From IMG/VR virus record IMGVR_UViG_2579778601_000008, positions 1 through 34,844 of that record: a stretch of DNA of 34,844 nt; one strand, 5' to 3'. The notes below the pieces were generated by a model. The model worked only from the letters and a program-made list of their open reading frames with translations. It did no database searches and was not told the DNA's origin. This DNA comes from a virus. Its lineage: Duplodnaviria > Heunggongvirae > Uroviricota > Caudoviricetes. Below are positions 1 through 34,844 of the stretch, in pieces. Position 1 is the stretch's first letter. Every line of letters begins with the position of its first letter. Made by a program: the position numbers and the translations under genes.

Positions 1-1011
1 TTATAACGTCACTCCGCCTTTTAGTGGATTCAGAGCGACGGCATTTTGCAGATAGTCAGGCGCAAGGTGCGCATAGGCCATCGTCTGCTGAATGCTCGCA
101 TGTCCCAGAATCTGTTGCAGTGCGATTATATTGCCCCCGTTCATCATGAAATGGCTTGCGAATGTATGCCGCAGGATGTGGGTTGCCTGATTGGGTGGTA
201 TATCAGGTTTCACTCTGCGTAAAATCCCGCAAAATTTCTCATAATCAACTTTGAATAATTTGGCGCTGGCCTCCTCTTTAACTTTTTTCTCCAGTTCCTC
301 AGAAATCGGCACGGTTCGCTTTTTACCGTTTTTGGTTTTCAGGAAGGTAACCCTGCAATTTGTAATCTGTGCTGGTTTTAGCGTGGCAACTTCCGTCCAT
401 CTTCCTCCAGTGCTCAGACATAAAAGCGCGACAAGTAAGTCATCACCAGCCAAAACATTTAACAGTTTTTCGATTTCTGCTTTTTCCAGGAACGTCATTT
501 CAGGGTTGGCCTCCGCCAGTGGCGGCAGTCCGTGAATTGGGTGTTGCCCGGAAAATTCATCCAATTGAATTAATTTTGTGAACATGCCGGATAATCTGTA
601 CATGTCACGGTTTATCGTTGCGGCACTGATACCATCACGTAGTCGCATGGAACGATAATCCATCAAAGCCCTTTTGCTCATCCTGCTCACTGGTATATCA
701 CCTATGCCGCTGATGGTTTTGAGTAGATGATTAAACTCTTTTGTTCCATGCTCGTGGTTTTGCCCGTGATATTTCCACCAGATGTCCAGCAACTCACTCA
801 AAGTCCGGCGGTCTGCTCGCTGGCCTCCCCATTCTTTCTGACTGGCATTGGCGATTGTGTATCGCTCAAATGCTAGTGCTTCAGCTTTTCTTTCGAATTT
901 CCTGCGGATGCGTTTTCCGTCGCGACCGCGAGGTCTAATGTCCACTTCATAGCGACCATCATCGAGCTTCTTAATTGCCATAAGAAAGCCCTCCGGCGCT
1001 GTATTCACCAT
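1..1011 (-). CDS. int: Phage integrase, tyrosine recombinase (P2 Int-like)
   Basis: 336-aa ORF; C-terminal catalytic region ...HILRHTFASHFMMNGGNIIALQQILGHASIQQTMAYAHL... typical of tyrosine recombinases; sits beside the C repressor as in P2. Stop codon is at window positions 1-3, so the gene is complete. Confidence 0.92.
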   Translation of the reverse strand: MVNTAPEGFLMAIKKLDDGRYEVDIRPRGRDGKRIRRKFERKAEALAFERYTIANASQKEWGGQRADRRTLSELLDIWWKYHGQNHEHGTKEFNHLLKTISGIGDIPVSRMSKRALMDYRSMRLRDGISAATINRDMYRLSGMFTKLIQLDEFSGQHPIHGLPPLAEANPEMTFLEKAEIEKLLNVLAGDDLLVALLCLSTGGRWTEVATLKPAQITNCRVTFLKTKNGKKRTVPISEELEKKVKEEASAKLFKVDYEKFCGILRRVKPDIPPNQATHILRHTFASHFMMNGGNIIALQQILGHASIQQTMAYAHLAPDYLQNAVALNPLKGGVTL

Positions 1012-3509: not shown

Positions 3510-5775
3510 AGCCTCCGGGCGTTTTGTCCCTCCGTCAGCATTTGCCGCAGGCACCGGTAAGGCGTTTACCGGTGCTTATGCATGGAACGCGCCACGCGAG
3601 GCTGTCGGGCGCGAAAGACCCCTTACACGTGACGAGATGCGTCAGGTGCAAGGGGTTTTATCCACGATTAACCGCCTGCCTTACTTTTTGCGCTCGCTGT
3701 TTACTTCACGCTATGACTACATCCGGCGCAATAAAAGCCCGGTGCACGGGTTTTATTTTCTCACATCCACTTTTCAGCGTCGTTTATGGCCGCGCATTGA
3801 GCGTGTGAATCAGCGCCATGAAATGAACACCGACGCGTCGTTGCTGTTTCTGGCAGAGCGTGGCCATTATGCGCGTCTGCCGGGGATGAATGACAAGGAG
3901 CTGAAAAAGTTTGCCGCCCGTATCTCATCGCAGCTTTTCATGATGTATGAGGAACTCTGCGATGCCTGGGTGGATGCGCATGGCGAAAAAGAATCGCTGT
4001 TTACGGATGAGGCGCAGGCTCACCTCTATGGTCATGTTGCTGGTGCTGCACGTGCTTTCAATATTTCCCCTCTCTACTGGAAAAAATACCGTAAAGGGCA
4101 GATGACCACGAGGCAGGCATATTCTGCCATTGCCCGTCTGTTTAACGATGAGTGGTGGACCCATCAGCTTAAAGGCCAGCGTATGCGCTGGCATGAGGCG
4201 TTACTGATTGCTGTCGGGGAGGTCAATAAAGACCGTTCTCCTTATGCCAGTAAACATGCCATTCGTGATGTGCGTGCACGCCGCCAGGCAAATCTGGAAT
4301 TTCTTAAATCGTGTGATCTCGAAAACAGGGAAACCGGCGAGCGCATCGACCTTATCAGTAAGGTGATGGGCAGTATTTCTAATCCTGAAATTCGCCGGAT
4401 GGAGCTGATGAACACCATTGCCGGTATTGAGCGTTACGCCGCAGCAGAGGGTGATGTGGGGATGTTTATCACGCTGACCGCGCCGTCAAAGTATCACCCG
4501 ACACGTCAGGTCAGAAAAGGCGAAAGTAAAACCGTCCAGCTAAATCACGGCTGGAACGATGAGGCATTTAATCCAAAGGATGCGCAGCGTTATCTCTGCC
4601 GTATCTGGAGCCTGATGCGCACGGCATTCAAGGATAATGATTTACAGGTCTACGGTTTGCGTGTCGTCGAGCCACACCACGACGGAACGCCGCACTGGCA
4701 TATGATGCTTTTTTGTAATCCGCGCCAGCGTAACCAGATTATCGAAATCATGCGTCGCTATGCGCTCAAAGAGGATGGCGACGAAAGAGGAGCCGCGCGA
4801 AACCGTTTTCAGGCAAAACACCTTAACCGGGGCGGTGCTGCGGGGTATATCGCGAAATACATCTCAAAAAACATCGACGGCTATGCACTGGATGGTCAGC
4901 TCGATAACGATACCGGCAGGCCGCTGAAAGACACTGCTGCGGCTGTTACCGCATGGGCGTCAACGTGGCGCATCCCGCAATTTAAAACGGTTGGTCTGCC
5001 GACAATGGGGGCTTACCGTGAACTACGCAAATTGCCGCGCGGCGTCAGCATTGCTGATGAGTTTGACGAGCGCGTCGAGGCTGCACGCGCCGCCGCAGAC
5101 AGTGGTGATTTTGCGTTGTATATCAGCGCGCAGGGTGGGGCAAATGTCCCGCGCGATTGTCAGACTGTCAGGGTCGCCCGTAGCCCGTCGGATGACGTTA
5201 ACGAGTACGAGGAAGAGGTCGAGAGGGTGGTCGGCATTTACGCGCCGCATCTCGGCGCGCGTCATATTCATATCACCAGAACGACGGACTGGCGCATTGT
5301 GCCGAAAGTTCCGGTCGTTGAGCCTTTGACTTTAAAAAGCGGCATCGCCGCGCCTCGGAGTCCTGTCAATAACTGTGGAAAGCTCACCGGTGGTGATACT
5401 TCGTTACCGGCTCCCACACCTTCTGAGCACGCCGCAGCAGTGCTTAATCTGGTTGATGACGATGTTATCGAATGGAATGACCCGGAGGTCGTGAGGGCGC
5501 TCAGGGGCGCATTAAAACACGACCGGAGAACGCCAAACCGTCAGCAAAGAAACGGAAGCCCGTTAAAACCGCATGAAATTGCACCATCGGCCAGACTGAC
5601 CCGGTCGGAACGATTGCAAATTACCCGTATCCGCGTTGATCTCGCTCAGAACGGTATCAGGCCGCAACGATGGGAGCTTGAGGCGCTGGCGCGTGGCGCG
5701 ACCGTAAATTATGACGGGAAACCTTTCACTTATCAGGTCGCTGATGATTGGCCGGGATTTTTGTTACCCATTTGA
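3499..5775 (+). CDS. A: Replication initiation protein A (rolling-circle nicking endonuclease)
   Basis: Start chosen at internal ATG 3499 (MAVKASGRFVPP...), which matches the P2 gpA N-terminus as I recall it; ~758 aa; follows B and the small orfs. Confidence 0.9.
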   Translation: MAVKASGRFVPPSAFAAGTGKAFTGAYAWNAPREAVGRERPLTRDEMRQVQGVLSTINRLPYFLRSLFTSRYDYIRRNKSPVHGFYFLTSTFQRRLWPRIERVNQRHEMNTDASLLFLAERGHYARLPGMNDKELKKFAARISSQLFMMYEELCDAWVDAHGEKESLFTDEAQAHLYGHVAGAARAFNISPLYWKKYRKGQMTTRQAYSAIARLFNDEWWTHQLKGQRMRWHEALLIAVGEVNKDRSPYASKHAIRDVRARRQANLEFLKSCDLENRETGERIDLISKVMGSISNPEIRRMELMNTIAGIERYAAAEGDVGMFITLTAPSKYHPTRQVRKGESKTVQLNHGWNDEAFNPKDAQRYLCRIWSLMRTAFKDNDLQVYGLRVVEPHHDGTPHWHMMLFCNPRQRNQIIEIMRRYALKEDGDERGAARNRFQAKHLNRGGAAGYIAKYISKNIDGYALDGQLDNDTGRPLKDTAAAVTAWASTWRIPQFKTVGLPTMGAYRELRKLPRGVSIADEFDERVEAARAAADSGDFALYISAQGGANVPRDCQTVRVARSPSDDVNEYEEEVERVVGIYAPHLGARHIHITRTTDWRIVPKVPVVEPLTLKSGIAAPRSPVNNCGKLTGGDTSLPAPTPSEHAAAVLNLVDDDVIEWNDPEVVRALRGALKHDRRTPNRQQRNGSPLKPHEIAPSARLTRSERLQITRIRVDLAQNGIRPQRWELEALARGATVNYDGKPFTYQVADDWPGFLLPI

Positions 5776-5992
5776 GTAAAAATACAGCGTGATTTTATAT
5801 GTCTTTGAATGGATTATGCGAAGCACCTCTAAGGTAGATGAGGAGCAATAGCGTGTTGAATCAGAAGGCTAAATTGTATTGAATCGTTAGCATGTAATTG
5901 AAGGCAGCTATTTGATTCGAGTCATAAAAGAGCATCTATTTCGGTTAATAAAACCATTGCGAGTGACTTTATGTCGAAGCATAATTCATCTC

Positions 5993-6006
5993 GAGCGAAG
6001 TCTTGC
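5993..6006. repeat. 14-bp direct repeat GAGCGAAGTCTTGC, copy 1 (preceded by GAGTGACT at 5961)
   Basis: Exact 14-mer recurs at 6257-6270; both copies are preceded by GAGTGACT. Confidence 0.8.
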
Positions 6007-6035
6007 TAGTCTTTCATCGGATTGATGACGGGCGC

Positions 6036-6067
6036 AAAAAAACCACCCTGGCAGGTGGTTTTTTTGT
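6036..6067. terminator. Bidirectional intrinsic terminator
   Basis: GC-rich hairpin (AACCACC..GGTGGTT) flanked by A7 upstream and T7 downstream; lies downstream of gene A (+) and of the small minus-strand ORF. Confidence 0.7.
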
Positions 6068-6077
6068 TTGAAGCATA

Positions 6078-6191
6078 CTAAAGAAAAATACTTACATGGA
6101 TATTACTGACGTTTACTGACAAACCACTCGGACTACCATATGGATAGCCAAAGAGGGCCAGAACGAGAATGCAGTAATAGCACTTCTTCAT
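6078..6191 (-). CDS. Candidate small hydrophobic peptide (37 aa), possible type-I-toxin-like or small membrane protein
   Basis: My own translation, not in the supplied ORF track (below its length cutoff): MKKCYYCILVLALFGYPYGSPSGLSVNVSNIHVSIFL. AGGAGG lies 4 nt upstream of the ATG; the stop codon is directly followed by the intrinsic terminator. Confidence 0.35.
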   Translation of the reverse strand: MKKCYYCILVLALFGYPYGSPSGLSVNVSNIHVSIFL

Positions 6192-6256
6192 ATCGCCTCC
6201 TGTAAGCAGAGGGCAATTTCCGCCGATATATGCGCTTCTAAGGCGGAGTGACTATT

Positions 6257-6270
6257 GAGCGAAGTCTTGC
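6257..6270. repeat. 14-bp direct repeat GAGCGAAGTCTTGC, copy 2 (preceded by GAGTGACT at 6246)
   Basis: Exact match to 5993-6006; the two copies bracket the terminator and the 37-codon ORF. Confidence 0.8.
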
Positions 6271-6912
6271 CCTGAAATAATGCTCTGTTTAAACGCAAAG
6301 TGATCTGGCATATCACCGAACAGAGGACCTGAACAACACAACATATAGTATGTCGTTGTTTCTGGTTGCATTTTATGTTGTGTAATACTGGTTTTGCATC
6401 AAGGATGTTTGAGCTTTTTTTGATATAGCTCAAAGTAAAAAGCAGAGACTACGGATGATAAGGTCTTGAAAGCAATGTAAATTTTTTAAAGTTGTGAGTG
6501 GCTAGAAATGCACAGTTTCAATATGGCGGATTTAAACAAGTAATTAAAAATAGCGACATAAATTCCAATAAAATCATTAAGTTGCGTTTTCTGTGGAAAC
6601 TTCGGTGACTCTGAAATTTTCTTTTAGTGTCGCTGAGGTTTAACAACGCGCTGCGCAAGTAGTTAGTGTTTTTTTAACTCAATATTCTGATTTATAAGGT
6701 TTTTTATAAATCGTGGACTGGTTGCGCGTATTCATCTCGTGTTATCAGCAAAGATAAGCTCTATATGCAGAACGGAATGCATATATGATGTCGAAAATGT
6801 TATGGGAAAACGTGGATTAGTGTTATAGTAATGGCTGAAAAACAGCCTTGACATAAAATAACAACTGTGATATGGCTGTGCATACTTAACTTTTTTAACG
6901 TAGGAGGCAACC

Positions 6913-7398
6913 ATGAGCTATGCAGCTAAAAAACTGCTTGACCGCTATTGGGATCGCCGACTACCTGTCGATCCGTTTAAGCTTGCTAAAGCGTGGGGTG
7001 CTCGTGTTGAAGCACTTGAGGAATCGGCTTATAACAACGATGGGTTAAGCGGTCTGGCTGTCATCAAAAAGGGTGTCCATAGGATTTATTTTGATTCTAG
7101 TGAACATTCTAATCGTCAACGTTTTACTGTTGCACACGAGTTAGGTCATCATGTGCTGGGGCATACCCAGGACGGAGAGTACCATCGGGATAATGTCGGG
7201 AATTATTCAACAGGTGCTCGTGATTACCGTGAGGTTGAAGCAAACAAGTTTGCTGCTGAGTTGTTAATGCCTGAGTCTGCTATACGTCAATTGGTATCCA
7301 GAGAAGGTATTGATAGCACTTTGAGATTAGCAAGCATCTTTAATGTATCAGAAGCCGCTATGCATTGGCGCTTAAAGAGCTTAGGAATGGCTTATTAA
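6913..7398 (+). CDS. ImmA/IrrE-family (DUF955-like) zinc metallopeptidase, no attached HTH domain
   Basis: 161-aa ORF with HEXXH motif in ...FTVAHELGHHVLGH...; AGGAGG 6 nt upstream of the ATG; AT-rich upstream region with TTGACA at 6848. Confidence 0.75.
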   Translation: MSYAAKKLLDRYWDRRLPVDPFKLAKAWGARVEALEESAYNNDGLSGLAVIKKGVHRIYFDSSEHSNRQRFTVAHELGHHVLGHTQDGEYHRDNVGNYSTGARDYREVEANKFAAELLMPESAIRQLVSREGIDSTLRLASIFNVSEAAMHWRLKSLGMAY

Positions 7399-7425
7399 TT
7401 AGCCTTTAACTTTTAACCTGTTTAA

Positions 7426-7462
7426 AATCACCTTTACGTTTGTACATGTAAGGGTGATTTTT
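7426..7462 (+). terminator. Hairpin plus T-tract between the peptidase and membrane-protein genes (possible attenuator or partial terminator)
   Basis: Inverted repeat AAATCACCTTT...AAGGGTGATTT followed by TTTTTT running into the ATG at 7465. Confidence 0.4.
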
Positions 7463-7464
7463 TT

Positions 7465-8064
7465 ATGGCTGATATTGATTTATCTGGACAGTCCCCAGAG
7501 CAAGGAACCACTCCTAAGGGCGATTCAGATCCTGATATCCTTATAAGGCGAGATAGACGGGATGGTATAGAGCGTAGAAGTATGCGATTAGTGCTCTCTG
7601 CCGTTGTGCTTTGTTTTGCTTGTACATTTCTATGGCAGGGGCTTAACTTTGCTTTGGCTGTTGGAAATGGCTTGCTGGAAGCGAAAAGCAGTATTGCCGC
7701 AGCGATAACACAAAAAGTAGATACACAAACTTGTGTTTCAGCAGAAAAATGTTCTGCTTTATCTTCGGATCCGAAGATGGCTGATGAGAGGATAACACCA
7801 TCTTCAGACACTAATAAAGTTAGAAAATCTATTTCTGGTTTATCCACCGATTGGTTATCGGCCAGTTCTCTAATAGCTATTGTTGCATTCATCCTTGGTG
7901 TGGGTTTAACTTTGCTTTTGACTCTTCTTAAATCAGCATTTCAACACCCGACAGATAAAGACTTTAGAACAAAGTCGACATCTAATACTATTGAGTTGGC
8001 CACGCCAATCAGTGAATTAATAATTGGTGTTCTGAATATAATTAAAGACAAACTATCTAAGTAA
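7465..8064 (+). CDS. Predicted two-TM membrane protein of unknown function
   Basis: 199-aa ORF; charged N-terminus (RRDRRDGIERR); hydrophobic segments LVLSAVVLCFACTFLWQGLNFALAV and SLIAIVAFILGVGLTLLLTLL; two Cys in the intervening loop; amphipathic C-terminus; co-oriented with the peptidase gene. Confidence 0.6.
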   Translation: MADIDLSGQSPEQGTTPKGDSDPDILIRRDRRDGIERRSMRLVLSAVVLCFACTFLWQGLNFALAVGNGLLEAKSSIAAAITQKVDTQTCVSAEKCSALSSDPKMADERITPSSDTNKVRKSISGLSTDWLSASSLIAIVAFILGVGLTLLLTLLKSAFQHPTDKDFRTKSTSNTIELATPISELIIGVLNIIKDKLSK

Positions 8065-8146
8065 AGCATTAGTTGTGATTTTTTATTGGTTTTAGTGATA
8101 ATACATCTCCAGTACTTATTGTTACTGGAGAGTATTTTTAGTCGTT

Positions 8147-9088
8147 TTATATTTTTAATGTTAGTGAATGATATTCACGAGAGTTCACGTTCGATGTGAT
8201 GTAATCGGGGGCGTTAACACCAAGAATCGCAACGAGTAATCGGCAAATTAAAGCCTGCATTTGTTGTAATATGTCATCTCCATATTGATAATTGTTAATA
8301 GTGGTAAAGCCAAGTGGTTGACCATGAAACATAGCTTCATGAAAGTTTTCATTGCGGATGTTTGTAATGTTTTTTTTGCCTGTAACCCATGATGGTCGTG
8401 GTATTCCATAAGTTTTGCAGATCCACTTCAAGCGCCTGGAGTGATTTAGAGTCTTTTCTGTACACTTGTTCTTTTCTGCCCATGTTAAAGCAAAGCAACT
8501 ATCCAGTGCCATATAAAGATACTGGAATTTTTCGAAGCTAAGGTATTGTGGGTTTTGGGATAAAAATAGTGCATGCACTATTGCTGCTATATTTATTGGT
8601 GCGTGTTTGGTTTTTGTCTCGCTAGACATGTATTTGAGTGCTAATTCTATAACCTCTTTTTCAGAGCACTTGACCAGAATAAAGTCAGTTAATTTGCTGG
8701 GTTTTATTGGGGTTGCGTCTAAAAAACCGGCATCAGTAGTTGTTAATCTTATCCCTTTGAAAAAAGACAGACACCACACAGCAAAATTGAGAGTTTCTAG
8801 TGAAGATGTATTTTTTAATTTTAGTGAGTGTGTTTTGGGTAAGCCAAATACTCGTTGGCTAAAAGGCATTGTGGATATGCCTCCATTGAGGTTATATACT
8901 TCTTGGTTTCCTGGGTATATCCAACCGTTAATAACATTTCTGTGATTGTTTATAAGATTTGTTTTTTCCGCTAGACCGGGTAAAGTAAGTAAAGAAAAAT
9001 CATCAGTTTCAACGTTAACTTCTACTGGATAGTATCCAAACTCAGCTTCAATATCATTGGATTGCTGTTCGTCAACTTTACCTTGCAT
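8147..9088 (-). CDS. Hypothetical 313-aa protein with RNxxxH motif (possible HEPN-type nuclease)
   Basis: Long ORF in a markedly AT-rich stretch, convergent with the two upstream genes; GGAG 6 nt upstream of ATG; motif RNENFH near residue 245; no P-loop or HEXXH seen. Confidence 0.65.
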   Translation of the reverse strand: MQGKVDEQQSNDIEAEFGYYPVEVNVETDDFSLLTLPGLAEKTNLINNHRNVINGWIYPGNQEVYNLNGGISTMPFSQRVFGLPKTHSLKLKNTSSLETLNFAVWCLSFFKGIRLTTTDAGFLDATPIKPSKLTDFILVKCSEKEVIELALKYMSSETKTKHAPINIAAIVHALFLSQNPQYLSFEKFQYLYMALDSCFALTWAEKNKCTEKTLNHSRRLKWICKTYGIPRPSWVTGKKNITNIRNENFHEAMFHGQPLGFTTINNYQYGDDILQQMQALICRLLVAILGVNAPDYITSNVNSREYHSLTLKI

Positions 9089-23806: not shown

Positions 23807-24384
23807 TGGCTTTCAGAATGAGTGCAGAAGCACAAACTATCCACGTATTTAATTTACTTGATGGAACCAATGAATTTATTGGGGAAAGTGACGCATATAT
23901 CCCACCGTACACTGGCCTGCCTGCAAACAGTACAGATATTGCACCACCTGATATTCCAGCTGGTTATGCAGCCGTTTTCAATGCAGACGAAATGAAATGG
24001 GAACTGATGGAAGACCATCGCGGAAAGACTGTCTACGAAACGAAAACGGGAGCAGCCATTTATATTTCTGAACTTGGCGTATTACCTCCAGACGTGACAG
24101 CCATTTCCCCGGATGGGGATTATCAGAAATGGAACGGCAATGCGTGGGTGAATGATGAGAATGCAGAGCGTGATGCGCTTGTCAGAGCGGCGGAGTCTCA
24201 GAAGAAAGAGCAGATTGCATATGCAGGTGAAATCATTGCCACGCTGCAGGATGCTGTCGATTTAGATATGGCTACCGAGGAAGAAAAGTTAAGTCTGACA
24301 CACTGGAAAAAATACCGTGTGTTACTGAATCGCGTTCAGCCGGAAAATGCCCCGGATATTGAATGGCCGGAACTACCGCAATAA
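23806..24384 (+). CDS. G: Tail fibre assembly chaperone (Tfa-like)
   Basis: 192-aa ORF starting at the H stop; resembles Tfa-family tail fibre assembly proteins. Confidence 0.85.
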
Positions 24385-26570: not shown

Positions 26571-26722
26571 CGTTTCCGAAAAATCTGTCGGTAGATGACC
26601 TGATGGCGGATGTGGCAGTGATATTTCACTGGCCGCCATCAGAACTGTATCCCATGAGCCTGACCGAACTCATCACATGGCGCGAAAAGGCGCTCCAGCG
26701 AAGCGGAAACACGAATGAGTAA
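26295..26722 (+). CDS. Tail assembly chaperone E+E' made by programmed -1 frameshift
   Basis: Slippery sequence GGTTTTTTG at 26541-26549; I traced the -1 frame by hand from there to a TAA at 26720-26722, encoding ...HWPPSELYPMSLTELITWREKALQRSGNTNE. Confidence 0.7.
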
Positions 26723-26882: not shown

Positions 26883-27632
26883 TCACTGATCTCCTTCGGT
26901 CAACGGAGATTGTATTTTCCGCATTGATTCTCCTTTAAGTTCGATCTTGATACTGCCATGAACCAGTCGATCTAGGATGGCATCCGCATGTGTGGAGTCT
27001 CCGATCATTTTGTACCAGTTTTCCACCGGCAACTGGCTCACTACGATGATTGAGCCTCGTTGGTACATCAGATCCACTATTTCCAGCAGGTCGCTACGCT
27101 GTTCTGATGAGAGAGGTTCCAGCCCCCAGTCATCCAGAAGCAGCAGATCGCTATTATTCAGCCTGGTCAAAAGTTTGCTGTATCTTCCATCAGCATGCCC
27201 CTGATAGCACTGTTCCATCAGCGCTTTAAGGCGATAATAGTAGACCTTGTATCCCTGTCGGCAGGCATTATGACCAAGTGCACATGCCAGGAACGTTTTA
27301 CCGCTGCCGGTGGCCCCGGTCAGTAAAATATTTTGTTTCAGGGTTAACCAGTTTCCCTGACTGAGTGAACGGATGAGGGCCCTGTCCAGCCCTCTATTGT
27401 TACGATAATCCAGCTTTGATAACTCAGCATTAAGTCTGAACCGTGCATGTTTGATCAGACGCTCTGCCTTCCTGTTTTCACGGCAGGTTAGTTCTTCTGC
27501 TGTCAGTAATGACAGGCGTTCTTCGAAGCCCAGCTCCTGGTATGTGCCCGGTTGAGCAAGTTGCTTTTTAAGCGCATCACGGAAGCCGGTGAGTTTAAGT
27601 GCGGTCAGTTGTTCGTAAAGATGATTCATCAT
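26883..27632 (-). CDS. istB: IS21-family helper ATPase IstB
   Basis: 249-aa ORF with Walker A (GATGSGKT) and Walker B (LLLLDDWG) motifs, typical of IstB. Confidence 0.9.
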   Translation of the reverse strand: MMNHLYEQLTALKLTGFRDALKKQLAQPGTYQELGFEERLSLLTAEELTCRENRKAERLIKHARFRLNAELSKLDYRNNRGLDRALIRSLSQGNWLTLKQNILLTGATGSGKTFLACALGHNACRQGYKVYYYRLKALMEQCYQGHADGRYSKLLTRLNNSDLLLLDDWGLEPLSSEQRSDLLEIVDLMYQRGSIIVVSQLPVENWYKMIGDSTHADAILDRLVHGSIKIELKGESMRKIQSPLTEGDQ

Positions 27633-27643
27633 TGGATCCCGTA

Positions 27644-29185
27644 TCAGTGGTAATACTCACTGCCGCGTACGTTTTCGTGTTCCATCGTGGATAACAGATC
27701 TGGTTTTGGATCCTGAACAGGTTGTTTATCCAGACCTTTTTCCAGGATCGATTTAATACCTGACAGACGCCATACCTTTGTTTTCAGAGCTCTTGCACAT
27801 GCTGCATTAAGTCTGGCTTTACTGTATTTTTTATGAAGGTTCAGGAGTCCAAGGCAGAAGCGATAGCTTTGTTCCGGATGTGGACGAGAGTTCAGTATAT
27901 GAAGCACATAACTATGAGTTTCACTGCCTATGTGCCCCGCCCATTCCAGAAGACGCTCTGGCGTCCAGGTGGCATGCTGTCGATGAGCTTCAGGCATGTG
28001 CTCGTTGCGGGTACTGTAGCCATAAGTACGCTTGCGCGGGTGCACAGCAACCTCCTGCCCCTGATTGAAGAGTCTTACCAGTTCTCCGGAGATCCATGCT
28101 TCCAGTTGCTGGCCTAACAGCGAACATGGAACCGAGTAGTAATGTTTGTCGATTTCCACGTGGTAATCGGCATGAACTCTGACTTTCTTCACCAGGGTGT
28201 AACTGTAACTGGCTTCAGGAAGAGGCTTCAGTGCGGGTTTATCAAGCTGGATGAAGAGTTCTGCACGTGAATAACCCAACTTCTGCATTATTTTGTTATT
28301 CAGTCTTTCCAGCAACTCCCGAATGCGCTGATTAAGCGATGCAAGGCTGTAGAAGATCTCATGCCTGATTCGGGCCATGATCCAGCGTTCAACAACCTGA
28401 ACGCCAACTTCAGCTTTGGCTTTATCTTTCGGTTTACGTGGCCGCGCAGGCAAAACTGCGACATTATAATGCTCAAGCATCTGCTGGTAGGTAGGGTTAA
28501 CGTCAGGATCATACTTACATGCCCTGGATGTGGCGCTTTTCAGATTGTCCGGAACAACAAGTTCAGGAACGCCACCCAACCACTGGAAGCAGCGAACATG
28601 ACTCATCACCCAGTCTTCAAGCTGCTGAGACCAGGTGGCCTCTGCCCATGTGTAACTTGATGCCCCGAGAACAGCTACGATGACCTGAGCAGTTCTTATT
28701 TCTCCGGTCTCAGGGTCGGTAACGCCAACGGTAGGTCCACAGTAATCAACGAAAAGTTTTTCGCCAGCTTTATGTACCTGACGCATTGATGGTGAAGTGG
28801 TTTTGAGCCATTCACGGTACATCCGGCAGTAATGGTTATAGCTGTAAAAACCGCCTGGATTACGCTCACAGTATTCTTCCCAGAGTAGCTGCAGCGTCAC
28901 GCATTTATTACGCAGTTCCCGGTGTACTGTAGCCCAGTCAGGCAGAGAGTGCTTCTTCATCTTAACCTGGGTCTGAAGGAACGCATGTTTTAGTTTTGTA
29001 TCATCCCATCCTGTAGGTAAGGGCCACTGCTTTATGCCAAGTTGAGCCGCCCGATTAGCATATCTGGATACAACGGAAGGGGAGATTGCAAGACTACGAC
29101 CAATTTGTCGATGGCTGAGTCCAACACCGTATTTAAGCCTAAGAATTTCTTTAAGTTTTCTCATAGAAATTGGAACTGTTGGCAT
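27644..29185 (-). CDS. istA: IS21-family transposase IstA
   Basis: 513-aa ORF with an N-terminal HTH and DDE-type integrase core, immediately upstream of istB. Confidence 0.9.
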   Translation of the reverse strand: MPTVPISMRKLKEILRLKYGVGLSHRQIGRSLAISPSVVSRYANRAAQLGIKQWPLPTGWDDTKLKHAFLQTQVKMKKHSLPDWATVHRELRNKCVTLQLLWEEYCERNPGGFYSYNHYCRMYREWLKTTSPSMRQVHKAGEKLFVDYCGPTVGVTDPETGEIRTAQVIVAVLGASSYTWAEATWSQQLEDWVMSHVRCFQWLGGVPELVVPDNLKSATSRACKYDPDVNPTYQQMLEHYNVAVLPARPRKPKDKAKAEVGVQVVERWIMARIRHEIFYSLASLNQRIRELLERLNNKIMQKLGYSRAELFIQLDKPALKPLPEASYSYTLVKKVRVHADYHVEIDKHYYSVPCSLLGQQLEAWISGELVRLFNQGQEVAVHPRKRTYGYSTRNEHMPEAHRQHATWTPERLLEWAGHIGSETHSYVLHILNSRPHPEQSYRFCLGLLNLHKKYSKARLNAACARALKTKVWRLSGIKSILEKGLDKQPVQDPKPDLLSTMEHENVRGSEYYH

Positions 29186-29378: not shown

Positions 29379-31748
29379 GCGAGTAAGTCGCTGTCGGGGG
29401 ATATCCGGGAAACACAAAAATCACTGCGCGAGCTGAATGGTCACGCATCCCGTATTGAGGGATTTCGCAAGACTAGCGCACAGCTTGCCGTGACTGGTCA
29501 TGCACTTGAAAAGGCACGGCAGGAAGCCGAAGCCCTTGCCACACAGTTTAAAAACACCGAACGTCCGACCCGTGCTCAGGCGAAAGTGCTGGAATCCGCA
29601 AAGCGTGCGGCGGAGGACTTACAGGCGAAATATAACCGCCTGACGGATTCCGTTAAACGCCAGCAGCGGGAACTGGCCGTTGTGGGAATTAATACCCGCA
29701 ATCTTGCACATGATGAGCAGGGACTGAAAAACCGTATCAGTGAAACCACCGCACAGCTTAACCGTCAGCGCGACGCGCTGGCGCGTGTCAGTGCGCAACA
29801 GGCAAAACTTAACGCAGTAAAACAGCGTTATCAGGCCGGAAAGGAACTGGCCGGAAATATGGCCTCAGTGGGCGCTGCCGGTGTGGGGATTGCTGCTGCG
29901 GGAACGATGGCCGGAGTTAAGCTGCTGATGCCCGGTTATGAGTTTGCGCAGAAAAACTCAGCATTGCAGGCCGTGCTCGGAGTGGCAAAAGACTCCGCCG
30001 AAATGACCGCACTCCGCAAACAGGCGCGCCAGCTCGGCGACAATACCGCAGCCTCGGCGGATGATGCAGCCGGTGCACAGATTATCATTGCGAAAGCCGG
30101 TGGGGATGCTGCGGCTATTCAGGCGGCAACGCCGGTCACACTGAATATGGCACTGGCAAACCAGCGGTCGATGGAAGAAAACGCGCAACTGTTGCTGGGG
30201 ACTAAGGCATCCTTTCAACTGTCAAATGATGATGTCAGCCATGTGGGCGACGTGTTGTCGGCAACGATGAATAAGTCGGCGGCTGATTTTCAGGGACTCA
30301 GTGATGCACTGACTTACCTCGGTCCGGTTGCGAGGACGGCAGGTGTAAGTCTTGAACAGGCAGCGGCCATGACAGGTGTGCTGCATGACAATAACATCAG
30401 GGGGTCAATGGCGGGTACGGGTGGCAGTGCCGTTGTCACCCGATTACAGGCACCGACTGGAAAAGCATGGGATGCACTCAAAGAGCTTGGCGTTAAAACC
30501 TCGGACAAAAAGGGAAATATGCGTCCGTTGTTCACCATTCTGAAAGAGATTCAGGCCAGCTTTGATAAACACAAGCTGGGAACGTCTCAGAAGGGGGAAT
30601 ACCTTAAAACCATTTTTGGTGAGGAAGCCCTGAAATCAGCGAACGTTTTACTGGCAGCGGCAGCAAGCGGAAAACTGGATAAGCTGACCGCCACGCTGAA
30701 AGCCTCGGACGGTAAAACGGAAGAGCTGGTTAAAATCATGCAGGATAACCTCGGTGGTGACTTTAAGGAGTTTCAGTCCGCTTATGAGGCGGTGGGGACT
30801 GACCTGTTTGACCAGCAGGAAGGCACACTGCGTAAGCTCACGCAGACGGCCACAAAGTATGTGTTAAAACTCGACGGCTGGATCCAGAAAAACAAATCAC
30901 TGGCGTCAACCATCGGCATCATTGCCGGTGGCGCGCTGGCGCTGATTGGCATCATCGGTGCAATTGGTCTTGTAGCCTGGCCGGTTATCACCGGCATCAA
31001 TGCCATCATCGCGGCAGCAGGCGCAATGGGGGCAATCTTCACGACGGTTGGCAGTGCTGTTATGACCGCCATCGGGGCTATTAGCTGGCCGGTTGTGGCC
31101 GTGGTGGCTGCCATTGTCGCCGGGGCGTTGCTTATCCGTAAATACTGGGAGCCTGTCAGCGCATTCTTTGGCGGTGTGGTTGAAGGGCTGAAAGCGGCAT
31201 TTGCGCCGGTGGGGGAACTGTTCACGCCACTGAAGCCGGTGTTTGACTGGCTGGGCGAAAAGTTACAGGCCGCGTGGCAGTGGTTTAAAAACCTGATTGC
31301 CCCGGTCAAAGCCACCCAGGACACCCTGAACCGTTGCCGTGACACGGGCGTCATGTTCGGGCAGGCACTGGCTGACGCGTTGATGCTGCCGCTTAATGCG
31401 TTCAACAAACTGCGCAGTGGTATTGACTGGGTACTGGAAAAACTCGGTGTTATCAACAAAGAGTCAGACACACTTGACCAGACCGCCGCCAGAACTCATG
31501 CCGCCACGTATGGTACCGGTGACTATATTCCGGCGACCAGCTCTTATGCAGGCTATCAGGCTTATCAGCCGGTCACGGCACCGGCTGGCCGCTCTTATGT
31601 AGACCAGAGTAAAAACGAATATCACATCAGCCTGACGGGTGGTACTGCGCCGGGGACACAGCTTGACCGCCAGTTACAGGACGCGCTCGAAAAATACGAG
31701 CGGGATAAACGTGCGCGCGCCCGTGCCAGCATGATGCATGACGGTTAA
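29379..31748 (+). pseudogene. T: Tape measure protein T, C-terminal portion (frame open from the IS junction)
   Basis: The frame resumes right after the IS (...KSLSGDIRETQKSLRELNGHASRIEGFRKTSAQLAVTGHALEKARQ...) and continues ~790 codons with the hydrophobic segments typical of tape measure proteins. Confidence 0.85.
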
Positions 31749-31762
31749 GGAGGTGACGAAAA

Positions 31763-32242
31763 ATGATGCTCGCGTTAGGTATGTTTGTTTTTATGCGCCA
31801 GACGCTGCCACACCAGACCATGCAGCGTGAATCAGATTATCGCTGGCCGTCAAATTCCCGTATCGGTAAACGGGATGCCTACCAGTTTCTCGGTGTGGGT
31901 GAGGAAAACATGACGCTTGCCGGTGTGCTTTATCCCGAACTGACCGGCGGAAAGCTGACGATGACCACGCTCAGGCTGATGGCAGATGAAGGCCGGGCGT
32001 GGCCGTTGCTGGATGGCACCGGCATGATTTACGGCATGTATGTCATCAGCAAGGTGAGTGAAACAGGGAGTATTTTCTTTGCAGACGGCACACCCCGGAA
32101 AATTGATTTTACGCTGTCGCTCACCCGCGTTGATGAATCACTGGCCGCGCTTTATGGCGATATCGGTAAACAGGCGGAGTCGCTCATCGGTAAGGCCGGC
32201 AGTATGGCGACCAGATTCACGGGTATGACGGGGGCAGGATAA
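31763..32242 (+). CDS. U: Tail protein U
   Basis: 159-aa ORF at the P2 gpU position. Confidence 0.88.
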   Translation: MMLALGMFVFMRQTLPHQTMQRESDYRWPSNSRIGKRDAYQFLGVGEENMTLAGVLYPELTGGKLTMTTLRLMADEGRAWPLLDGTGMIYGMYVISKVSETGSIFFADGTPRKIDFTLSLTRVDESLAALYGDIGKQAESLIGKAGSMATRFTGMTGAG

Positions 32243-33405
32243 TGCTGGATGCGCTGACATTTGATGCAGGCAGTACGCTGACGCCGGATTACATGCTGAT
32301 GCTCGACAGCAGGGATATTACCGGCAATATCAGCGACCGTCTGATGAGTATGACCCTGACGGATAGCCGGGGCTTTGAGGCTGACCAGCTTGATATTGAA
32401 CTGAACGATGCCGACGGGCAGGTCGGGCTGCCGGTTCGTGGCGCTGTCCTGACGGTGTATATCGGCTGGAAAGGTTTTGCCCTGGTATGCAAAGGGAAAT
32501 TCACCGTTGATGAGGTTGAACACCGGGGCGCACCGGATGTGGTCACCATCCGCGCCCGGAGTGCAGATTTTCGCGGGACGCTCAATTCCCGCCGTGAAGG
32601 CTCCTGGCATGACACCACGCTCGGTGCGATTGTTGAGGCGATAGCCTCCCGTAACAGGCTGGAAGCCAGTGTCGCGCCGTCACTGGCAGGAATTAAAATC
32701 CCGCACATCGACCAGTCGCAGGAGTCTGATGCGAAATTCCTGACCCGTCTTGCAGAACGCAACGGCGGTGAGGTCTCGGTAAAAATGGGAAAACTGTTGT
32801 TTCTCAAAGCGGGGCAGGGGGTGACGGCCAGCGGTAAAAAAATCCCGCAGGTCACCATCACCCGCAGCGACGGTGACCGTCATCATTTTGCGATTGCTGA
32901 CCGTGGAGCCTATACCGGCGTAACGGCAAAGTGGCTTCACACCAAAGACCCGAAGCCACAAAAGCAGAAGGTAAAACTGAAACGCAAAAAGAAAGAAAAA
33001 CACCTGCGCGCACTGGAACACCCGAAAGCGAAACCAGTCACGCAGAAGAAAGCGCCAAAAGTACCGGAAGCGCGCGAAGGTGAATACATGGCAGGTGAGG
33101 CTGACAACGTTTTTGCCCTGACCACGGTATATGCCACGAAAGCGCAGGCCATGCGCGCCGCTCAGGCGAAGTGGGATAAGCTGCAACGGGGCGTTGCGGA
33201 GTTCTCCATCAGTCTGGCTACTGGTCGGGCAGATATTTACACGGAAACGCCGGTCAAAGTATCAGGCTTTAAGCGCGTCATAGACGAGCAGGACTGGACA
33301 ATCACTAAGGTGACACATTTTCTGAATAATAGCGGCTTCACGACGTCCTTGGAGCTTGAGGTCAGGCTTTCTGATGTGGAGTACGAAACAGAAGATGATG
33401 AGTGA
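32242..33405 (+). CDS. D: Tail protein D (late control D)
   Basis: 387-aa ORF at the P2 gpD position; contains a Lys/Pro-rich low-complexity segment. Confidence 0.9.
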   Translation: MLDALTFDAGSTLTPDYMLMLDSRDITGNISDRLMSMTLTDSRGFEADQLDIELNDADGQVGLPVRGAVLTVYIGWKGFALVCKGKFTVDEVEHRGAPDVVTIRARSADFRGTLNSRREGSWHDTTLGAIVEAIASRNRLEASVAPSLAGIKIPHIDQSQESDAKFLTRLAERNGGEVSVKMGKLLFLKAGQGVTASGKKIPQVTITRSDGDRHHFAIADRGAYTGVTAKWLHTKDPKPQKQKVKLKRKKKEKHLRALEHPKAKPVTQKKAPKVPEAREGEYMAGEADNVFALTTVYATKAQAMRAAQAKWDKLQRGVAEFSISLATGRADIYTETPVKVSGFKRVIDEQDWTITKVTHFLNNSGFTTSLELEVRLSDVEYETEDDE

Positions 33406-33486
33406 TGTTTTTATTTTATCTGTTTGTTTTATAAGGATAAATTAACTAAAATGGCACCATCAATAAAACCGGAAGAGGTGCTCGCG

Positions 33487-33705
33487 ATGTTTCATTGTCC
33501 TTTATGCCAGCATGCCGCACATGCGCGTACAAGTCGCTATATCACTGACACGACAAAAGAGCGTTATCACCAGTGCCAGAACGTGAATTGCAGCGCCACG
33601 TTCATCACTTATGAGTCGGTACAGCGATACATCGTGAAGCCGGGAGAAGTCCACGCCGTAAGACCGCACCCGTTGCCGTCAGGGCAGCAAATTATGTGGA
33701 TGTGA
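33487..33705 (+). CDS. ogr: Late-gene transcriptional activator Ogr (zinc finger)
   Basis: Start at MFHCPLCQHAAHARTSRYITDTTKERYHQCQNVNCSATF...; 72 aa with a Cys4 arrangement as in P2 Ogr. Confidence 0.9.
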   Translation: MFHCPLCQHAAHARTSRYITDTTKERYHQCQNVNCSATFITYESVQRYIVKPGEVHAVRPHPLPSGQQIMWM

Positions 33706-33710
33706 TCACA

Positions 33711-33740
33711 AAAATAGCCCCTCAGTTGAGGGGCTTTATT
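33711..33740 (+). terminator. Intrinsic terminator after ogr
   Basis: Hairpin TAGCCCCTC-AGTT-GAGGGGCT followed by a T-rich tract. Confidence 0.65.
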
Positions 33741-33748
33741 TATGGTCG

Positions 33749-33767
33749 ATGTGGACGCTATGTGGAC
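33749..33767 (+). promoter_or_regulatory. Candidate Int arm-type binding sites (two direct repeats ATGTGGAC) in the right arm
   Basis: ATGTGGAC at 33749-33756 and 33760-33767, between ogr and the host junction; resembles the TGTGGACA-like arm consensus I recall for P2 Int. Confidence 0.45.
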
Positions 33768-33834
33768 AGTGCTTGATATAAATCCATTTATATCATCAGG
33801 TTAGGTGCTTTTTTGTGACACCATCCCTGTCTTC

Positions 33835-33860
33835 CCCCACATGATGTGGGGGTTTTTTTT
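33835..33860 (+). terminator. Intrinsic terminator-like hairpin near the prophage/host junction
   Basis: CCCCCACATGATGTGGGGG followed by T8; may belong to the host upstream gene or overlap the att core. Confidence 0.5.
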
Positions 33861-33941
33861 ATCCTCAATTTGCCTGCTGCTTAATGCATTGCAGATGATT
33901 TGCTTCCGTTATACTACCGTCAGTTGATAGCGGGAGTATTT

Positions 33942-34844
33942 ATGAATCAATCTTATGGACGGCTGGTCAGTCGGGCGGCGATTGCTGCGACGGCGATGGC
34001 TTCGCTGCTATTGCTGATTAAAATTTTTGCATGGTGGTATACCGGGTCGGTGAGTATTCTCGCCGCGCTGGTGGATTCGCTGGTGGATATCGGTGCGTCG
34101 TTGACGAATTTACTGGTGGTGCGATATTCCCTGCAACCTGCCGACGATAATCACTCGTTTGGTCACGGTAAAGCTGAGTCCCTCGCGGCGCTGGCGCAAA
34201 GTATGTTTATCTCCGGTTCGGCACTATTCCTGTTTTTGACGGGTATTCAACATCTGGTATCTCCAACACCGATGACAGATCCAGGCGTCGGGGTTATCGT
34301 GACAATTGTGGCGCTAATTTGTACGATTATCCTTGTCTCGTTTCAGCGTTGGGTGGTGCGCCGGACGCAAAGCCAGGCGGTGCGGGCTGATATGCTACAT
34401 TACCAGTCTGATGTTATGATGAACGGCGCAATTCTGCTGGCGCTGGGGTTGTCCTGGTACGGCTGGCATCGCGCCGATGCTCTGTTTGCATTGGGGATCG
34501 GCATCTATATTTTATATAGCGCGTTACGCATGGGATATGAGGCGGTACAGTCATTACTGGATCGCGCATTGCCTGATGAGGAACGGCAAGAAATTATTGA
34601 TATCGTGACTTCCTGGCCGGGTGTTAGCGGCGCTCACGATCTTCGCACGCGGCAGTCAGGGCCGACCCGCTTTATTCAGATTCATTTGGAAATGGAAGAC
34701 TCTCTGCCTTTGGTTCAGGCACATATGGTGGCGGATCAGGTAGAGCAGGCTATTTTACGGCGTTTTCCGGGATCGGATGTGATTATCCATCAGGACCCCT
34801 GTTCCGTCGTACCCAGGGAGGGTAAACGGTCTATGCTTTCATAA
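33942..34844 (+). CDS. fieF: Host cation-efflux pump FieF/YiiP (cation diffusion facilitator)
   Basis: Start at [35 protein letters not shown]...; ~300 aa with multiple TM helices and a C-terminal cytoplasmic domain; matches enterobacterial FieF as I recall it. Confidence 0.85.

Follow-up and report, generated by a model that had tools for sequence, protein, structure and literature searches.

At which base does the prophage in front of the metal exporter gene fieF give way to host DNA, and which host sequence serves as its integration site? We addressed this question in a window of 34,844 nucleotides, which is the whole stretch of DNA that was analyzed (positions 1 to 34,844 of IMG/VR record IMGVR_UViG_2579778601_000008). 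A sequence-only reading of this DNA had placed the right attachment site, attR, in an interval of about 150 bp upstream of fieF, with two direct repeats as arm-type integrase (Int) sites and a strong hairpin as a host-junction terminator. Our analysis indicated that positions 33746-33863 very probably represent the attR (P arm plus core) of a Wphi-type P2-like (Peduovirus) prophage, located at the known Wphi attB between cpxP and fieF. This feature is a textbook P2/Wphi attR and was already known, and the present understanding of P2-type site-specific recombination is unchanged by the findings. The overlap of the core with the small RNA CpxQ and the bound on the crossover position are small additions. 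The positions of the features are listed in Table 1.

Table 1. Coordinates of the features of the prophage and its right junction in the window
Feature	Position	Strand	Remark
int, P2-type tyrosine integrase	1..1011	-	RefSeq version 981 nt (window 1-981); stop codon at window 1-3
gpD	32242-33405		right part of the window, before ogr
ogr, late-gene activator	33487..33705	+	last phage gene before attR; ORF; RefSeq annotation, identical DNA
ogr/F-operon intrinsic terminator	33716..33745	+	stem 33716-33735, then T-rich tail; aligns with annotated P2 terminator 24265-24288
Putative Int arm-type site 1, P arm, TGTGGACG	33750..33757	+	aligns with P2 "Int P arm" protein_bind; copy 1 of the sequence-only reading = 33749-33756
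Putative Int arm-type site 2, P arm, TGTGGACA	33761..33768	+	aligns with P2 "Int P arm" protein_bind; copy 2 of the sequence-only reading = 33760-33767
AT-rich segment homologous to P2 IHF site	33775..33812	+	aligns with P2 IHF protein_bind 24324-24357
att core common to attP, attB, attL and attR	33817..33863	+	47 bp, GACACCATCCCTGTCTTCCCCCACATGATGTGGGGGTTTTTTTTATC
Interval that must hold the strand-exchange point	33817..33843	.	narrowed to 33819-33838 by cross-lineage inference
Truncated CpxQ copy, nucleotides 15-58 of 58, without 5' seed	33817..33860	+	K-12 cpxQ annotation
Copy of cpxP/CpxQ intrinsic terminator	33834..33860	+	G+C-rich stem of 8-9 bp, 3-nt loop, T8
Host-derived B' flank, native fieF upstream region	33864..33941	+	one SNP relative to empty-site strains, otherwise identical
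fieF, host CDF metal exporter	33942..34844	+	ORF, RefSeq annotation

Right junction, core and arm sites of the prophage

To locate the junction, an empty-site comparison was performed, in which each of the 5,426 complete E. coli genomes gave a match to a query reaching from ogr to fieF. Base-by-base comparison with K-12, BL21, an O157:H7 strain and UTME-13 revealed that homology to the empty site begins at 33817. Homology to free phages, Wphi included, stops at 33863; thus the two limits define a core of 47 bp. Apart from a single base in the hairpin loop, which is A or C, the core of K-12 and other empty sites is the same as that of the window, and the Wphi attP differs from window 33706-33863 by one base. 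These results placed the junction inside the interval that had been proposed and agreed with the earlier statement that the prophage sits directly upstream of fieF, as everything to the right of 33863 is host DNA. For annotation, they fix the limits of the prophage exactly through the core at 33817-33863.

The left end of the prophage was examined in E. coli strain 21964, which is collinear with the whole window and shows 3 mismatches in 34,844 bases. This strain carries exactly two copies of the core, one at window 33817 and the other 163 nt further left than window position 1. The end of cpxP stands before the left copy and the P' arm after it, with GTGTGGACACTATGTGGACAC adjoining int. A repeat of some part of 33770-33900 had been anticipated beyond the int end, and the 47-bp stretch is what was found there. 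The sequence-only reading was right that the left junction lies outside the window, but its view that the core could not be defined here did not hold, since comparison of genomes defined it. The core is therefore common to attP and attB, and the prophage has a copy of it at each end. In the attP of Wphi, the ogr and int ends of the phage are contiguous, and in the window int stands at the opposite end of the prophage. The prophage of strain S7 is about 1.7 kb longer than that of the window.

The repeats, the hairpin with its T8 tract and the downstream position of fieF were found at exactly the coordinates given by the sequence-only reading. The two copies of ATGTGGAC (33749-33756 and 33760-33767) have a centre-to-centre spacing of 11 bp, and, as had been noticed, they lie just past the ogr terminator, a bidirectional intrinsic terminator; the pair begins 14 nt after its stem. 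In the P2 RefSeq annotation, the order of elements is ogr terminator, Int P arm, IHF, attP core, Cox and Int P' arm, the last of which overlaps the end of int. A column-by-column alignment of the window with P2 placed the repeats on the P2 P-arm sites (TGTGGTCA-ATG-TGTGGACG). The published consensus of P2-type arm repeats is tgTGGaCa (PMC3448106), and both P-arm copies fit it. The pair in Wphi is identical to that in the window, and such a pair is present in 37/37 IMG/VR loci in which the P arm next to this core could be read. In strain 21964, a second pair, GTGTGGACACTATGTGGACAC, was observed in the P' arm next to int, 16-37 nt to the left of window position 1, so that repeats matching the consensus stand on both sides of the core, as in a P2-type attachment site. 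Taken together, the alignment, the identity with Wphi, the consensus and the matching P' pair bore out the proposal that the repeats are arm-type sites, and homology to the P2 annotations suggested that Int would bind at 33750-33768.

The integrase of the window was consistent with this assignment. It shares 52% identity with P2 Int (E = 3e-122), and its first ~40 residues, counted from the RefSeq start codon, form an N-terminal arm-binding segment that is near-identical to that of P2 Int; the divergence between the two proteins is confined to the part outside the N terminus. The tyrosine integrase encoded in the window is thus of P2 type and cognate to these sites, and its N-terminal arm-binding domain is conserved.

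Between the arm sites and the core, the alignment of the AT-rich segment with the P2 IHF site runs through a common block, ATAAATCC(A/T)TTTAT. An exact-match search of the window for the IHF consensus gave no match, and an IHF-like sequence, TATCATCAGGTTA, with one mismatch to WATCAANNNNTTR, was found at 33791-33803. The same segment contains a perfect 9-bp inverted repeat at 33775-33794 (GATATAAAT-CC-ATTTATATC), which is partly conserved in P2.

Overlap of the core with CpxQ

The hairpin CCCCCACATGATGTGGGGG lies at 33834-33852 and is followed by T8 at 33853-33860. Folding of the 44-nt stretch gave -16.5 kcal/mol with z = -2.9, and the hairpin with its T tract is predicted from sequence and fold to be an intrinsic (rho-independent) terminator. 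In the K-12 RefSeq annotation, the sRNA gene cpxQ (4106330-4106387) directly follows cpxP and comprises 58 nt, namely TTTTCCTTGCCATA followed by GACACC...GGGGGTTTTTTTT. The core corresponds to nucleotides 15-58 of K-12 CpxQ plus ATC, and the hairpin with T8 represents the terminator of cpxP and CpxQ rather than an element of the phage or of fieF. The "host-junction terminator" of the sequence-only reading was correct in that a strong hairpin with a T tract stands upstream of fieF, but the hairpin is not host-only. It lies inside the core common to phage and host and is carried by every free phage of the Wphi group.

Previous work has reported that the 5' end of CpxQ contains the seed for nhaB and cfa and that C11 is needed for cfa (PMC6755755). 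At attR, CpxQ nucleotides 1-14 are replaced by phage sequence and no cpxP stands upstream, so the attR copy falls short of a full CpxQ gene, which yields an RNA of ~58 nt, 5' seed included, by cleavage of the cpxP mRNA. The host supplies nucleotides 1-14 at attL, which lies outside the window, and the full sRNA is restored there. Since the core is a phage-borne copy of CpxQ 15-58 including the terminator, integration restores cpxP-cpxQ at attL. Neither the window nor the K-12 and S7 loci gave a match in an Rfam scan at gathering thresholds; as this holds even at K-12, the identification as CpxQ rests on the K-12 RefSeq annotation. A scan of 33350-34000 for sigma-70-like promoters found none. 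With no such promoter before the attR copy and the ogr terminator upstream of it, the copy would be silent as an sRNA. Its most likely role would be no more than that of a second terminator separating fieF from the phage late genes, where it may insulate fieF.

The stem of the CpxQ terminator shows compensatory double changes across genera in the IMG/VR and GTDB loci. Stem variants with T...A were seen in, for example, L091, L102, L115 and L123, and variants with G...C in, for example, L109 and L120. Phage attP and attL copies carry the matching variant, which was seen for T...A in L091, L102 and L123, indicating that phage cores track the sequence of the host sRNA. After the T8 tract, most non-Escherichia hosts have GCC, as opposed to ATC in E. 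coli and the phages.

Position of strand exchange and alternative readings

A natural polymorphism within the core already narrows the strand-exchange point. The base at the centre of the hairpin loop, core position 28 (window 33844), is C in K-12 (L001 1372) and A in the window and in all phage copies. Empty E. coli sites carry both alleles; among 50 sites sampled in even steps down the score-ranked match list, A was the majority and C occurred in about 10. In the IMG/VR loci with the core, the base was A in 24 and C in 4 attR, A in 24 and C in 0 attL, and A in 8 and C in 0 attP, a distribution that yielded Fisher p = 0.04 in this modest sample. The C allele was also found at attR in 17 complete genomes, using a C-allele query that needed the linked SNP at 33916. 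In 4/4 genomes fetched with C at attR, the base at attL was A, and the int alleles and P' arms differed among these genomes. The loop base of attR thus came from the host and that of attL from the phage, which places the exchange to the left of 33844; this placement is drawn from the modest IMG/VR sample and the four paired genomes. Phage and host differ at 33816, so the exchange lies to the right of that base.

A further limit came from an element in Rosenbergiella metrosideri (L224) of the lineage with TGTAGAC arms, whose attL and attR share only CACCATCCCTGTCTTCCCCC (20 bp) and have different hairpins. By extension from this other lineage (the Int of its member L003 is 67% identical), the exchange would fall at 33819-33838. 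Given an exchange left of 33844, the lysogen's working cpxQ consists of phage DNA at least in the loop, the 3' half of the stem and the U-tail. In lysogens of C hosts, cpxQ at attL has the phage A allele; K-12 itself holds the minority C. The motif GACA-N7-TGTC (33817-33831) was considered as a pair of core-type sites around a CCATCCC overlap and remains speculative, as sister lineages retain only CA...TG.

Other readings of the repeats and of the hairpin were weighed against an attR with arm-type sites and an exchange left of the loop. The two copies of ATGTGGAC could be a chance repeat or an element of ogr termination or regulation. The 7-mer TGTGGAC is in fact not enriched, with 4 copies in the window against 4.7 expected from shuffles, and so the motif count alone proves nothing and the case for Int sites rests on position and conservation. 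Judged on sequence, what goes beyond chance is the phased tandem pair at exactly this place, not the number of motifs. The pair keeps its position in P2, in Wphi and in all 37 P arms, coincides with the P2 Int P-arm feature and has its counterpart on the int-side arm. Moreover, a sister lineage swaps both arms together to TGTAGAC/TGTAGTC, with the N terminus of Int diverging alongside. A repeat without a role in Int binding is hardly credible in the light of these observations. It could also be argued that the terminator hairpin itself consists of inverted core-type Int sites, with exchange in the loop (~33843-33845), since it forms a perfect inverted repeat of 9 bp with its centre at 33843 and the cores of tyrosine recombinases are usually inverted repeats around an overlap of 6-8 bp. 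A mismatch within the overlap should, however, block recombination or yield mixed segregants, and the alleles segregated cleanly in 4/4 pairs, with the host allele at attR and the phage allele at attL. C was never seen at attL or attP, and 9 further attL had a single mismatch to the C-allele query, assumed to be the A loop base. The entire hairpin also differs between attL and attR in the Rosenbergiella element L224. We consider an exchange within the loop highly unlikely.

The hairpin also raised the question of whether the CpxQ 3' fragment, at attR and in free-phage attP, is expressed and functions as an RNA, such as an Hfq-binding decoy or a chimeric sRNA, beyond serving as DNA for recombination. 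The fragment retains the terminator hairpin and U-tail that are typical of Hfq-binding modules, and its position beyond ogr and the late F operon means that read-through transcripts would stop there. These points are countered by the lack of a sigma-70-like promoter from ogr to the core, by the strong ogr terminator upstream and by the phage sequence immediately 5' of the core, which differs among lineages; the fragment is also without CpxQ nucleotides 1-14, that is, the 5' seed used for nhaB and cfa. A function of the fragment as an RNA was thus judged very unlikely.

On the preferred reading, an attR of P2 type, the N-terminal domain of the heterobivalent tyrosine integrase would bind the two arm sites phased by 11 bp, TGTGGACG and TGTGGACA. 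IHF would bend the AT-rich site at ~33775-33812, so that the same Int molecules could reach the core. During excision, Cox would load on the P' arm of attL, and the synapse of attL and attR would allow strand exchange in the left part of the 47-bp identity, at 33817-33843, with the exact cleavage positions being predictions. Integration would rebuild an intact cpxP-cpxQ at attL, with the phage supplying at least the terminator loop, the 3' stem half and the U-tail, and would leave at attR a promoterless CpxQ fragment without the 5' seed. The assignments of protein binding, bending and cleavage in this scheme are all predictions from homology to the P2 annotations.

Known integration systems, breadth of the site and other parts of the prophage

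The published Wphi attB is at MG1655 4104392 in the old numbering (PMC3448106), and this position maps inside the 47-bp core. Wphi1 (P2) has also been listed at cpxP-fieF in E. coli W (PMC3032704). The prophage of the window, with the same core and the same target, belongs to the Wphi integration specificity group. The P arm, arm repeats, IHF-like region and core are the same as in Wphi apart from one base, and the chromosomal site is the same. The window differs in being an integrated copy (attR) in another E. coli strain with an IS21-family insertion, and in nothing else of substance.

The attP of P2 has the same order and spacing of elements after the ogr terminator and the same arm motif as the window, and its core, too, is the 3' end of an Hfq-dependent sRNA. 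The 27-bp attP core of P2 (L006 357-383) is the exact reverse complement of the last 27 nt of cyaR (K-12, L070 275-301). The two systems differ in the core, which is 27 bp in cyaR (attB locI) in P2 and 47 bp in cpxQ here, and in the Int proteins, which are 52% identical. The orientation is also opposite; in P2 it is the ogr side that adjoins the 3' end of the sRNA, and here it is the int side. In K-12, the ogrK-yegZ remnant of P2 directly follows the 3' end of cyaR.

Phages such as 186, HP1 and P4 integrate in the 3' ends of tRNA or tmRNA genes, where the identity block restores the gene (PMC3448106). The site studied here resembles theirs in that a long identity stretches between the crossover and the 3' end of an RNA gene and in that the phage copy restores the gene. 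Unlike theirs, the target is a 3'-UTR-derived sRNA with its terminator rather than a tRNA, and Int is of the P2 arm type, not that of 186. The same general architecture of arm sites, an IHF bend and a core, with a heterobivalent Int, IHF and Xis, is present in the attP and attR of lambda. Lambda differs in the arm motif and in the number and arrangement of sites; here Cox takes the part of directionality factor and binds the arm on the int side.

The cpxP-fieF site is occupied in about 15% of complete E. coli genomes, with 791-793 of the 5,426 covering the attR or attL queries, and is apparently empty in 4,593. At least 120 species representatives of Enterobacterales carry the left 20-nt block of the core, and the cpxQ core is used by several P-arm lineages. 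A widely used P2-family integration site thus lies inside a well-studied envelope-stress sRNA, and in lysogens the terminator part of this sRNA comes from the phage. In our literature search, in which the original 2006 Wphi attB paper fell outside the coverage, no paper linking Wphi attB with CpxQ was found.

P2-type prophages have also been listed at rybB (PMC3032704). Together with P2 at cyaR and the Wphi group at cpxQ, this listing makes sRNA 3' ends look like a habit of the family. We tentatively raise the possibility, which we regard as rather doubtful, that the terminators or 3' ends of Hfq-dependent sRNAs (cyaR, cpxQ and reportedly rybB) are a shared target of the P2-like phages, which would replace that part of the sRNA with a phage copy in every lysogen. 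If so, phages could spread or homogenise CpxQ terminator alleles, such as the A/C loop base and the compensatory stem variants, and could aid the unusual conservation of this sequence. For cpxQ, this would concern about 15% of complete E. coli genomes, several Int and arm lineages and many genera of Enterobacterales.

The cpxQ core also serves a second P2-like lineage, in which identity begins 2 bp later. Both of its arms carry TGTAGTC/TGTAGAC repeats, and the Int of its member L003 is 67% identical, with a diverged N terminus; judging by these sequences, this is the pattern expected from co-evolution of protein and binding sites. L003 (NZ_JBQJRQ010000002.1) is a circular record of 32,330 bp named "plasmid unnamed3", with its attP at ~L003 2430-2650, and this "plasmid" is a circularised phage genome. 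Further loci of this lineage are L020, L039, L044, L046 and L055.

Within the window prophage, the IS21-like element ISEc12 lies on the minus strand at 26883-29185 (istB 26883-27629, istA 27644-29185), between gpE (26603-26722) and the tail tape-measure gene (29391-31748), which is about 90 nt shorter than in the uninterrupted relative L071. The insertion in the tape-measure region may mean that the prophage no longer completes the lytic cycle; it is probably tail-defective, though its att sites look intact. A variable cargo region is located at ~5775-9088, between the replication endonuclease and portal genes. In the window, it contains an ImmA/IrrE peptidase gene (6913-7398) and hypothetical genes at 7465-8064 and 8147-9088, the latter on the minus strand. 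Other cargo takes its place in sister prophages that share the att site, namely a cytosine methyltransferase together with a ParB-domain protein, or a methylase paired with a BbrUII/HgiDII restriction enzyme.

Copies of the core 1.2-4.5 kb apart were observed in Rosenbergiella metrosideri (L224), R. gaditana (L140), Tatumella terrea (L204) and Citrobacter amalonaticus (L230). The left core copy has the P'-arm pair in 4/4 of these loci, and at the right copy a P-arm pair was detected in L140, L224 and L230 only, not in L204. What occupies the cpxQ site in these four loci is probably either the decayed remnant of a prophage or a small element bearing int.
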